Under the pieces are notes generated by a model. The model was not told the origin of the DNA. It worked only from the letters and a program-made list of their open reading frames with translations, and made no database searches. A stretch of DNA of 24,000 nucleotides from Sphingobacteriia bacterium (GTDB lineage Bacteria > Pseudomonadota > Alphaproteobacteria > Rickettsiales > 33-17), in the NCBI GenBank assembly GCA_017304685.1, contig JAFKLR010000004.1:552841-576840 (forward strand), in the 5' to 3' direction. Below, in pieces: positions 1,348 to 3,740 of the stretch. Made by a program: the position numbers and the translations under genes. Positions within the stretch are counted from its first letter, which is position 1. The number at the start of each line of letters is the position of its first letter.

Positions 1348-2466
1348 CTATATAGTTTTTTTATTAGCTTCCGGAAGTGATAATGATTTATCGTATCCTT
1401 CTCTTTGTAAACCAAGTGGCTCGTAATCATATTTGATAACAGTACTGTGTTCTTTATTCTGCGACTTAGCTTGCGGTGGAATTTTTAAAGTATGTTTTTC
1501 TAAATATTCAGCATTCTCTCTAAATTCAATTTCCCTTCTTTCCCAGTAGAATCTTTCATTATTAAATCCTTCCCATGAAAGTGCTACCCATTTCATAAAT
1601 TTCATGGTCCATCTGCCAGTGCCTAATTTATTTACCTGAGCATTTAAATCCTCTAAATAAGTAGTTAATGTATTTTGCATATGTTCTGGAAACTTACTTT
1701 TATAAAGAGATAAATAATTAAATATTTCTTCGCTTACATCTTTAATTTCACTTAAGCCTTTTTCGCCAGCTTTATATAAAAAAGCATTACCGGAAATTCT
1801 TCCAGTTCTTTTTTCGTTATGAATATCTGCAAGGCTTCTATATAAGTGATTAATTAGCATTTGAGTGTAGCAAACATCAATTGAGGTTTTAAAGAATTTA
1901 AATGATGTTATATTTTCAAATGTAAATTCACCTGGAAAGTTTGTAACTTCTTTTTGACCATGAACTATGTAATTTACAATTGGTCCGTATAGTTTGAAAT
2001 ATTTTACATTATGTTCGTAGCTTTTTTGTCTATTTCCTTCAAAACCATTTTTAATAAATTCTTTATAATGAAAGGCAGCTAGATTGAATAATTTCATTAC
2101 AGTTGGGTAATCAGAACCAGATTTTTTACAAAGCGTTTCAACTGTGTAAAATATTGCATCACATTTTTCACTAAATATATCTCTAACAAATGGGGAAGGT
2201 TTACCTTCAATAATTACTTTTCCTAATTTATTAAATTCATCCTCAGACATACTTCTTAACTTTGAATCAATAACAGTAAAGGCGCTCATTAAATACCTAA
2301 GCGTCCCAAATGAACGGGCTAATTTTACAGGATTATAAGTTTGAGCAAGATTTAAAAGAAATCCTACATCTATAAAAGAACCTGGAAACCAAGTGTGTTC
2401 AGTTATTTCTGAAAACCACTGACTAGTTGGAACTATTTTGGTATTGTTGTTATTTTTCATATTCAC
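1348..2466 (-). CDS. Hypothetical protein, 372 aa (paralog A of a divergent pair)
   Basis: Long uninterrupted ORF in stop-codon-rich AT DNA. SD-like GAGGTG sits 5 nt upstream of the ATG (reverse complement of 2467-2480). It is colinear with the 369-aa ORF at 2631-3740: IVP at aa 11-13 in both, RYL/RYM near aa 57, LG near aa 82, and VMKLFNLA at aa 123-130 versus 122-129. Confidence 0.75.
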   Translation of the reverse strand: MNMKNNNNTKIVPTSQWFSEITEHTWFPGSFIDVGFLLNLAQTYNPVKLARSFGTLRYLMSAFTVIDSKLRSMSEDEFNKLGKVIIEGKPSPFVRDIFSEKCDAIFYTVETLCKKSGSDYPTVMKLFNLAAFHYKEFIKNGFEGNRQKSYEHNVKYFKLYGPIVNYIVHGQKEVTNFPGEFTFENITSFKFFKTSIDVCYTQMLINHLYRSLADIHNEKRTGRISGNAFLYKAGEKGLSEIKDVSEEIFNYLSLYKSKFPEHMQNTLTTYLEDLNAQVNKLGTGRWTMKFMKWVALSWEGFNNERFYWERREIEFRENAEYLEKHTLKIPPQAKSQNKEHSTVIKYDYEPLGLQREGYDKSLSLPEANKKTI

Positions 2467-2630
2467 CTCTTGATTGAGAATTACACGAAATGTGCGATTT
2501 AAGTTTAATGAGCTTTAACATTTCGAGTCAACATGAATTCTTTAAAAAACAATAGCTTAAGTAAATTTGCATTGACTGCGATAAAACCATTCTTAAACTT
2601 AAAGTTATAAATTTTTCTAGGGAGTTAAAT

Positions 2631-3740
2631 ATGTTAGCATCAACTGAGAAAAAGCCTGTTATAGTTCCAAATAATTTCTCATTTTTTACTAAAAAATTGG
2701 ATAAAGGTTTTTTAAATAATTTTATTTTTGAACCTATTATTAGTTTTAAAATAAGCCAAGAAAAAAACTTTTTGAAGTTCTTAAGAAATGCTTTTAGGTA
2801 TATGAATCTTTTAGAGCATTCTGTAAAAATTTCAGTCAAAATAAATGCTTTGAACGAGCAAGAAATTAGTAATTTAGGAGATGCGGATATAGGAGGTGAA
2901 GAACCTAATAAATTTTTACAAAGTGTATTTAGTGATACTTTAATAAATGAGATTAAAACTATTTGTAAAAATAATAATGTTAAATATGGTTCTGTTATGA
3001 AACTATTTAATTTAGCATCTCATTATTATTTAAAAGCACGTAGTTGCGCTTTTAAGGATGACTCAAAAGAAGCCGTTAATTGCAATAAAAAATCTATTCA
3101 TGTACTTGCAATAATTTTTAACTTTTTACTAAACGGTAGAGATAAAGATTTTATTATTGATGAAAATTCAACACTGGAAAGCTTAACTAAATACTTCTCA
3201 GATTCTATTAGTGTAATGGAAGGGATTCTTATAATAAACGATATTTATAGATTACCTGTTGATATTAAAATTGATAAAAAAACTCGATCCTCTTTTAATG
3301 AAGTTATTTTTTTAATTGAGCAAAAATACGGAAAAGAAGGTGTAGAAGAATTAAAAAGGTTTTTTGAAAGCTCGAATGCAGAATATCTTGATTATAATAA
3401 AACTATTTTACCACTTAATATAAAAGAAGAAATTATAGAAGGTATTGTACTAAAAAGATTTAATGAAATAGTGCAAACTTTATCTTCCCCAGGTAAAAAA
3501 GGTGGGGGAACCTTAGAATGGTATAAAAATATGCAATTAAATAAAGTAGGTTTTGCTAACCGTAAAGACTATTATGAAGATTATATTAAAAATAGCCCAG
3601 CCCCTAAAGAAAGAACTAATGATAGAGAAACGGGTATTTATAACGAACATGTTATTTCTAATGTGAGAGAAGAAAGAGATAAAGAACAAACGGCTCTTTT
3701 GGATGGAAATACAAAATTTTATAATAGCCATTCTAAGTAA
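2631..3740 (+). CDS. Hypothetical protein, 369 aa (paralog B of a divergent pair)
   Basis: GGGAG SD lies about 8 nt upstream of the ATG at 2631. It shares colinear motifs with the 372-aa ORF on the opposite strand. I recognise no known domain. Confidence 0.75.
   Translation: MLASTEKKPVIVPNNFSFFTKKLDKGFLNNFIFEPIISFKISQEKNFLKFLRNAFRYMNLLEHSVKISVKINALNEQEISNLGDADIGGEEPNKFLQSVFSDTLINEIKTICKNNNVKYGSVMKLFNLASHYYLKARSCAFKDDSKEAVNCNKKSIHVLAIIFNFLLNGRDKDFIIDENSTLESLTKYFSDSISVMEGILIINDIYRLPVDIKIDKKTRSSFNEVIFLIEQKYGKEGVEELKRFFESSNAEYLDYNKTILPLNIKEEIIEGIVLKRFNEIVQTLSSPGKKGGGTLEWYKNMQLNKVGFANRKDYYEDYIKNSPAPKERTNDRETGIYNEHVISNVREERDKEQTALLDGNTKFYNSHSK

Follow-up and report, generated by a model that had tools for sequence, protein, structure and literature searches.

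Two divergently transcribed orphan paralogs beside virD4 in a Rickettsiales genome: old duplicates and candidate host-interaction proteins

Introduction

Does a gene located directly after virD4, the gene for the coupling protein of rvh, a type IV secretion system (T4SS), owe its function to that system? The question was raised by two open reading frames (ORFs), here called paralogs A and B, found just beyond the 3' end of virD4 in a Rickettsiales genome (lineage 33-17, assembly GCA_017304685.1, contig JAFKLR010000004.1, positions 552,841 to 576,840). This stretch of 24,000 nucleotides (nt), with a GC content of ~28%, was analysed as a whole and is referred to as the window. A sequence-only reading had described A and B as ancient head-to-head paralogs and, from their position, as candidate T4SS substrates or accessory/adaptor factors. 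The results presented here indicate that the paralogy is genuine and old, that the family is confined to this genome among everything searched, and that the position next to virD4 lends no support to a T4SS role. A function in the interaction with a host is tentatively proposed on other grounds.

Results

Paralogy and divergence of the pair

The pairwise comparison of A and B was highly significant and colinear. BLASTP with compositional adjustment gave 93 bits and E=1e-25 for a stretch of 302 amino acids (aa) in which 28% of the residues were identical and 51% positive, and the Smith-Waterman score was 267, compared with 41.5 +/- 6.8 for 1000 global shuffles (z~33) and 41.9 +/- 6.7 for block-wise shuffles that kept the local composition; no shuffle scored above 98. 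Most of the correspondences on which the paralogy had originally been proposed were recovered in this alignment: IVP at aa 11-13 of both proteins, EFNKLG aligned to EISNLG, the octapeptide VMKLFNLA, identical in A and B and followed by AFHY (A) or SHYY (B), and GTGRWTMKF aligned with GGGTLEWYK. Two of them were lost: RYLM, previously matched to RYMN, was paired in the optimal alignment with KFLR, 8 residues earlier, and the similar motifs ERREIE and EERDKE both fell in tails that could not be aligned.

Nucleotide identity was 50% over 340 aligned codons, with codon position 2 the most conserved (58% identical vs. 44% for position 1 and 47% for position 3). The proportion of synonymous differences (pS) was 0.60, corresponding to a synonymous divergence (dS) of ~1.2, and the nonsynonymous divergence (dN) was 0.76. 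Synonymous sites were thus near saturation, in agreement with the age initially ascribed to the pair, which indicates a duplication that is old relative to the synonymous clock. Within the 24 nt encoding VMKLFNLA there were 5 synonymous differences between the two genes; since the codons differ at these sites, the octapeptide has been kept at the protein level, and not through recent gene conversion.

Both frames are open, over 370 and 369 codons, in DNA of 26-30% GC, in which ~8% of random codons would be stops; the chance of so long an open frame was ~1e-14 (our own arithmetic from base composition). The GC content, the GC content of third codon positions (GC3) and the isoelectric point (pI) of the pair were all within the 16th-79th percentiles of the genome, i.e. 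a native composition. Altogether, A and B are real protein-coding genes derived from an inverted duplication.

Distribution of the family

No recognisable domain had been reported for either protein, and scans against Pfam (E<=1), NCBIfam, PHROG and PADLOC were consistent with this, all of them without a significant match. A search of Protein Data Bank (PDB) sequences with the profile of the pair was also negative (best E 0.4). In two word-indexed searches of 5.8 billion proteins, A and B matched nothing but themselves, and an exhaustive hmmsearch of the profile against 1.84 billion cluster representatives (~15 billion proteins) returned only A and B. Six-frame profile searches detected the A and B copies alone in their own 2.12-Mb genome, and no homolog in 40 relatives or in 399 other genomes of the order (190 genera, including two genomes of the same family). 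No homolog was present in 54 Rickettsiales virD4 loci, and no other assembly carrying paralog B was found. A potential third copy at C9:23260-23628 (E=0.009) was spurious, and was read by eye as a YggS-type pyridoxal phosphate-binding protein.

These searches indicate an orphan family, confined to one Rickettsiales genome among everything searched. That the family always adjoins virD4, one of the checks first suggested, could not be demonstrated because it has no homolog in any other genome searched.

Gene organisation and promoters

The two ORFs were located as first described, head-to-head and each with its own Shine-Dalgarno (SD) sequence (Table 1), though the 164-bp spacer given for them had to be revised. 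Paralog A almost certainly starts at ATG 2460 and not at GTG 2466, because this GTG falls within the SD sequence GAGGTG and the public gene call is of 370 aa; the spacer is therefore 170 bp. The location "immediately downstream of virD4" was right physically, but not transcriptionally: paralog A converges on virD4 and there is no co-transcription. Having each a sigma-70-like promoter, an SD sequence and a terminator hairpin of their own, A and B would constitute independent, divergently transcribed units outside any virD4 operon. The hairpin between virD4 and paralog A and the palindrome beyond paralog B are both likely bidirectional terminators. A 103-aa ORF with a TTG start (window 2528-2839, minus strand), which overlaps the spacer and, antisense, paralog B at its 5' end, was judged spurious.

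Alignment of the two upstream regions revealed an identical 11-nt extended -10 element, TTAAACTTAAA, ahead of both genes. The exact arrangement TTGACT-N16-18-TAAACT occurred at 3 sites in the genome (3.5 expected from composition), and two of these were the back-to-back pair described here, 32 and 42 nt before the ATG starts. One-mismatch variants were found 23-63 nt upstream of 13 other ORFs, for which reason TTGACT/TAAACT looks like the ordinary, working promoter type of the organism. A special regulon marked by these hexamers was ruled out, as the one-mismatch variants precede many unrelated ORFs. In the simplest reading, the promoter was probably copied along with the gene during the duplication, and kept by both copies.

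The third exact copy of the promoter precedes a gene for a 382-aa F-box-like/leucine-rich repeat (LRR) protein (G000:C9:339627-340775; L078:228-1376:+), with an F-box-like domain at 24.4 bits (cut-off 24.3) and LRR_4 repeats at 68.7 bits. The architecture of this protein is eukaryote-like, and makes it a good candidate for a secreted effector.

virD4 and the T4SS genes

The identity of virD4 was confirmed by Pfam T4SS-DNA_transf (PF02534; E=8.7e-125, 417 bits) and by the NCBIfam VirD4 equivalog PRK13897 (819 bits, above the 728-bit cut-off). The relatives of the protein were those of Rickettsiales, with 60-77% identity across the order, and in the VirD4 tree the window fell outside Rickettsiaceae and Midichloriaceae and grouped, with a support of 99, with G001 and G002, two genomes of the same family. 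The VirD4 tail was acidic and rich in Ser, Asp and Asn. The VirD4 ORF was of 1116 aa in G002 (L018:12242-15592), 730 aa in G001 (L017:4960-7152) and 639 aa here; the C-terminal extension past the core of the type IV coupling protein (T4CP) thus varies greatly within one family.

The rvh genes were scattered: virB8-9-10-11 at C9:88603-92065, virB4 and four virB6-like genes at C9:1082333-1093487, second copies of virB4 and virB9 on C1, and virD4 alone at C1:552235. Of 54 other Rickettsiales loci, 31 have virB11 immediately ahead of virD4 and in the same orientation; here virD4 was detached from virB8-virB11, and no virB11 was found near virD4 in G001 or G002. Two more T4SS sets (VirB4, TrbL/VirB6, VirB10, VirB11 and TraG-like proteins) were present on contigs C7 (~25.3-36.2 kb) and C8 (~12.5-23.5 kb), of 54.5 and 28.9 kb; their TraG-like proteins are 24-28% identical to VirD4, and they probably belong to conjugative plasmids or integrative elements.

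The neighbours of virD4 differed in all three genomes of the family. Those in G001 were two M48 peptidases and an ATPase resembling ClpB, with AAA_2 and ClpB_D2-small domains, and the downstream side in G002 comprised PgpA, IspDF and FliM. The three ORFs after virD4 in G001, the closest relative, were considered as homologs of the pair and discarded, as they were unrelated by profile and two of them were the M48 peptidases. In other Rickettsiales loci the gene after virD4 was a housekeeping gene in all five cases checked: Ppx/GppA (Megaera locus), a Mur ligase (Bandiella locus), a glutathione S-transferase, shikimate dehydrogenase and MTHFR. Neither conserved linkage nor co-occurrence of the pair with T4SS genes was found (54 virD4 loci, 399 genomes).

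The proposal that adjacency to virD4 marks A and B as a T4SS substrate or adaptor was not supported by these comparisons, with different neighbours within the family, housekeeping genes in the five other loci and paralog A transcribed towards virD4. Because the five genes checked were all housekeeping, the place after virD4 would carry no functional information in Rickettsiales. Position is all that ties the pair to virD4, and as judged from the loci compared, it gives the T4SS reading no support.

Predicted properties of the proteins

Paralogs A and B have a pI of 8.9 and 8.4, respectively, and ~43 kDa each. Neither an N-terminal (Sec) signal peptide nor a membrane segment was detected in A or B (maximum 19-residue hydropathy 0.75 and 1.11). 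AlphaFold2 models, built from the two-sequence alignment, were all-alpha and of low confidence (predicted local distance difference test, pLDDT, 49.8 and 47.1), with a core at approximately aa 60-200 reaching pLDDT 70-84 and C-terminal tails (last ~50-60 aa) at ~25-36, which may be disordered. Both proteins are accordingly modelled as soluble, all-alpha proteins lacking a Sec signal. Foldseek searches (PDB with both models, BFVD with one) gave no fold match at E<=0.001, the best being E=0.27 with a template modelling (TM) score <=0.36. The top matches belonged to the class I isoprenoid synthase fold and, at such values on a model of pLDDT 50, were considered noise; the Asp-rich DDxxD motifs of these enzymes are not conserved in the pair, DDSKE being present in paralog B only and aligned to EGNRQ in A. 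The F-BAR chains also found among the top matches were likewise noise.

Genes surrounding the pair

Upstream of virD4 there were rpoD, a gene for an OmpA-family lipoprotein, a set of phage head genes (portal, prohead protease, capsid) and, just ahead of virD4, genes for two LD-carboxypeptidases. The portal, prohead protease and major capsid genes and the tandem LD-carboxypeptidase paralogs were located at L008:4544-8078 and L008:14002-16020; the phage head genes look like the head module of an alphaproteobacterial gene-transfer agent. On the other side of the pair, the helical 983-aa orphan ORF (Table 1) had no Pfam, NCBIfam, PHROG or PADLOC match, and an OTT_1508-type deaminase was among the neighbouring orphans. 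Scanning the window for Rfam families and tRNAs gave no match, and no integrase, tRNA or insertion sequence (IS) element flanked the pair.

The pepA-holC-nucleotidyltransferase block (window 6944-9647; L076; L077) was conserved in all three genomes of the family, but the orphan ORF behind it was another one in each, unrelated to the others (600 aa in the genome studied here, 653 aa for G001, 788 aa for G002); the orphans of G001 and G002 had no homolog in this genome. Given that both the neighbours of virD4 and the orphans after the pepA block differ among the genomes of the family, the virD4-pepA interval is a variable, rearranged region with lineage-specific genes.

Table 1. Features of the virD4-proximal part of the window (window coordinates).
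Feature	Position	Strand	Description
virD4 (rvh type IV coupling protein), 3' two-thirds	1..1314	+	Full gene G000:C1:552235-554154, 639 aa
Inverted repeat	1305..1340		Perfect, 17 bp, 2-nt loop, T-run flanks; between the stop codons of virD4 (1314) and the paralog A gene converging on it (1348); terminator and inverted-repeat scans
Paralog A	1348..2460	-	370 aa from ATG 2460 (372 aa if from GTG 2466)
VMKLFNLA codons, paralog A	2077..2100	-	Octapeptide
SD sequence GAGGTG, paralog A	2464..2469	-	3 nt ahead of ATG 2460; direct sequence reading
Promoter-like site TTGACT-18 nt-TAAACT, paralog A	2502..2531 (read 2531..2502)	-	Sigma-70-like
Promoter-like site TTGACT-16 nt-TAAACT, paralog B	2572..2599	+	Sigma-70-like
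SD sequence GGGAG, paralog B	2620..2624	+	6 nt ahead of ATG 2631; direct sequence reading
Paralog B	2631..3740	+	369 aa from ATG 2631
VMKLFNLA codons, paralog B	2994..3017	+	Octapeptide
Palindrome	3747..3774		14+14 nt; between the stop codons of paralog B (3740) and of the ORF converging on it, the 983-aa orphan (3780); inverted-repeat scan
983-aa orphan ORF	3780-6731	-	Helical, Asn/Lys/Ile-rich; GC 24.1%, the genome's 4th percentile

Discussion

A possible role in host interaction

The account to which we lean, though with somewhat less than even confidence, is that A and B are lineage-specific, fast-evolving host-interaction proteins or effector candidates with a Sec-independent export. The organism would be a probably intracellular member of Rickettsiales whose genome encodes putative rvh T4SS components, and the pair would sit in a block of lineage-specific orphans, beside other effector-like genes. 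Export of A and B would not require Sec and might plausibly proceed via the rvh T4SS; their divergence may have directed A and B at distinct host targets. That the genes adjoin virD4 would be a by-product of genome rearrangement, with no functional link. A host-interaction role seemed the most likely one because rvh genes are present, the neighbouring orphans are effector-like, the third exact promoter copy precedes the gene for the eukaryote-like F-box-like/LRR protein, and there is a precedent of the cREM-2a/2b kind: candidate rvh effectors of Rickettsia are often lineage-restricted, fast-diverging adjacent duplicates without predictable features, cREM-2a/2b among them (PMC11077975).

Several observations weigh against this account. 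The models, at pLDDT 47-50, are too poor to suggest any activity, and no eukaryote-like domain was found in A or B. C-terminal T4SS signals are basic in systems of the Agrobacterium or Anaplasma type and Glu-rich in Legionella; the last 20 residues of the paralogs have a net charge of +1 and 0, with no marked charge signal. The basic pI is unremarkable, as 47% of the long ORFs in the genome have a pI >8. The dN/dS of ~0.6 comes from a saturated dS and two sequences, and is no proper measure of purifying selection, and the common promoter hexamers could reflect convergence on the consensus instead of co-duplication. A more far-reaching version, in which A and B are a new family with an unseen all-alpha fold, born and duplicated in a single deep Rickettsiales lineage, and both are rvh T4SS effectors with a signal unlike the basic or Glu-rich C-terminal ones, is rather unlikely.

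Alternative explanations

The main competing explanation, to be taken seriously even if its probability is appreciably below one half, is that A and B are lineage-specific cytoplasmic proteins (regulatory, structural, or old mobile-element remnants) that are not exported, their proximity to virD4 being accidental. The absence of a secretion signal of any detectable kind, with a neutral C-terminal charge, would be expected of such proteins, and so would the native composition, an ordinary sigma-70 promoter type common to many other genes, and an adjacency to virD4 that is not conserved. A housekeeping function fits poorly, however, with the absence from two genomes of the same family and from 399 genomes of the order, and mobile-element remnants with the lack of any phage, plasmid or defence-system match and of a flanking integrase, tRNA or IS element. 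The single-genome distribution can also be read in another way, namely that the two genes are remnants in decay or without function, whose frames stay open through inertia and have ceased to be selected; the low identity between the copies and a dN/dS not demonstrably well below 1 are compatible with it. We consider decay improbable: both frames are intact over ~370 codons where stops arise easily, SD sequence, promoter and terminator are kept by both genes, conservation is highest at codon position 2, and a block of 8 residues has stayed invariant despite synonymous change.

The remaining explanations give the pair a defined molecular task, and both are very improbable. T4SS accessory or adaptor factors that bind VirD4 and recruit substrates, the alternative put forward by the sequence-only reading, would account for a pair adjoining virD4 and for basic proteins next to a coupling protein with an acidic tail, but in this genome a basic pI does not set proteins apart and the terminator between virD4 and the converging paralog A leaves no co-transcription. 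A core adaptor would also be expected to co-occur with VirD4, which is conserved across Rickettsiales, whereas the pair is in no other genome searched, and proteins of 43 kDa and pI 8.4-8.9 do not resemble the known small acidic adaptors. A binary toxin of the XaxAB/YaxAB type, alpha-helical and pore-forming, with A and B as its two subunits, was suggested by two related all-alpha proteins of like size (~42 kDa) encoded side by side, and by a weak match of paralog B to the NCBIfam alpha-xenorhabdolysin subunit B (NF033927; E=8e-4, 18.8 bits, 42 residues). This score is far under the 40-bit family cut-off and paralog A had no match; no pore-forming-toxin chain appeared in the PDB sequence search (E<=10) or among the 50 Foldseek matches listed per model. 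Moreover, both proteins lack an insertion segment of hydrophobic or amphipathic character (maximum hydropathy 0.75 and 1.11), and the genes are divergent and not in one operon.

Significance

The value of these results is mainly corrective: in Rickettsiales, adjoining virD4 does not predict a T4SS function, because the neighbours of virD4 are housekeeping or lineage-specific genes that differ between genomes. The pair is in itself ordinary and of modest interest; since intracellular bacteria commonly carry orphan duplicates specific to their lineage, it would not surprise a specialist. If secretion were shown, A and B would represent a new family of effectors, from a lineage of Rickettsiales about which little is known, and would illustrate the birth of an effector and its duplication together with the promoter.

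Comparison with known systems

The adaptors and chaperones of T4CPs, such as IcmS/IcmW/LvgA of Legionella and VirE1 of Agrobacterium, are small acidic proteins that occur together with their T4SS. The pair would resemble them, as the sequence-only reading envisaged, in being non-enzymatic helical proteins tied to a T4CP, but differs in size (43 kDa), in being basic, in its restriction to one genome and in not being co-transcribed with virD4; unlike an adaptor co-inherited with its coupling protein, it was found in no other genome with an orthologous VirD4. The alpha-xenorhabdolysin binary toxin (NF033927) resembles the pair in having two related, similarly sized all-alpha subunits with neighbouring genes; the pair differs in lacking an insertion segment and in the score itself, 18.8 bits against a 40-bit cut-off and for one paralog only.

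A further parallel is with cREM-2a and cREM-2b (DUF5410, Pfam PF17422), candidate rvh effectors of Rickettsia whose genes are adjacent duplicates (Verhoeve et al. 2024, PMC11077975). There is no sequence relation between the two pairs: PF17422 was unmatched by A and B (no Pfam at E<=1), and the exhaustive protein search returned nothing of the kind. The cREM-2 genes are in tandem, whereas A and B are head-to-head, and experimental RvhD4 interaction data exist for cREM-2, whereas the pair described here is known from its sequence. In their general features, though, the two cases are alike, both consisting of lineage-restricted hypothetical proteins encoded by adjacent, diverged duplicates in Rickettsiales with an rvh T4SS, with no Sec signal or other predictable features, and with their conserved residues in the central region.

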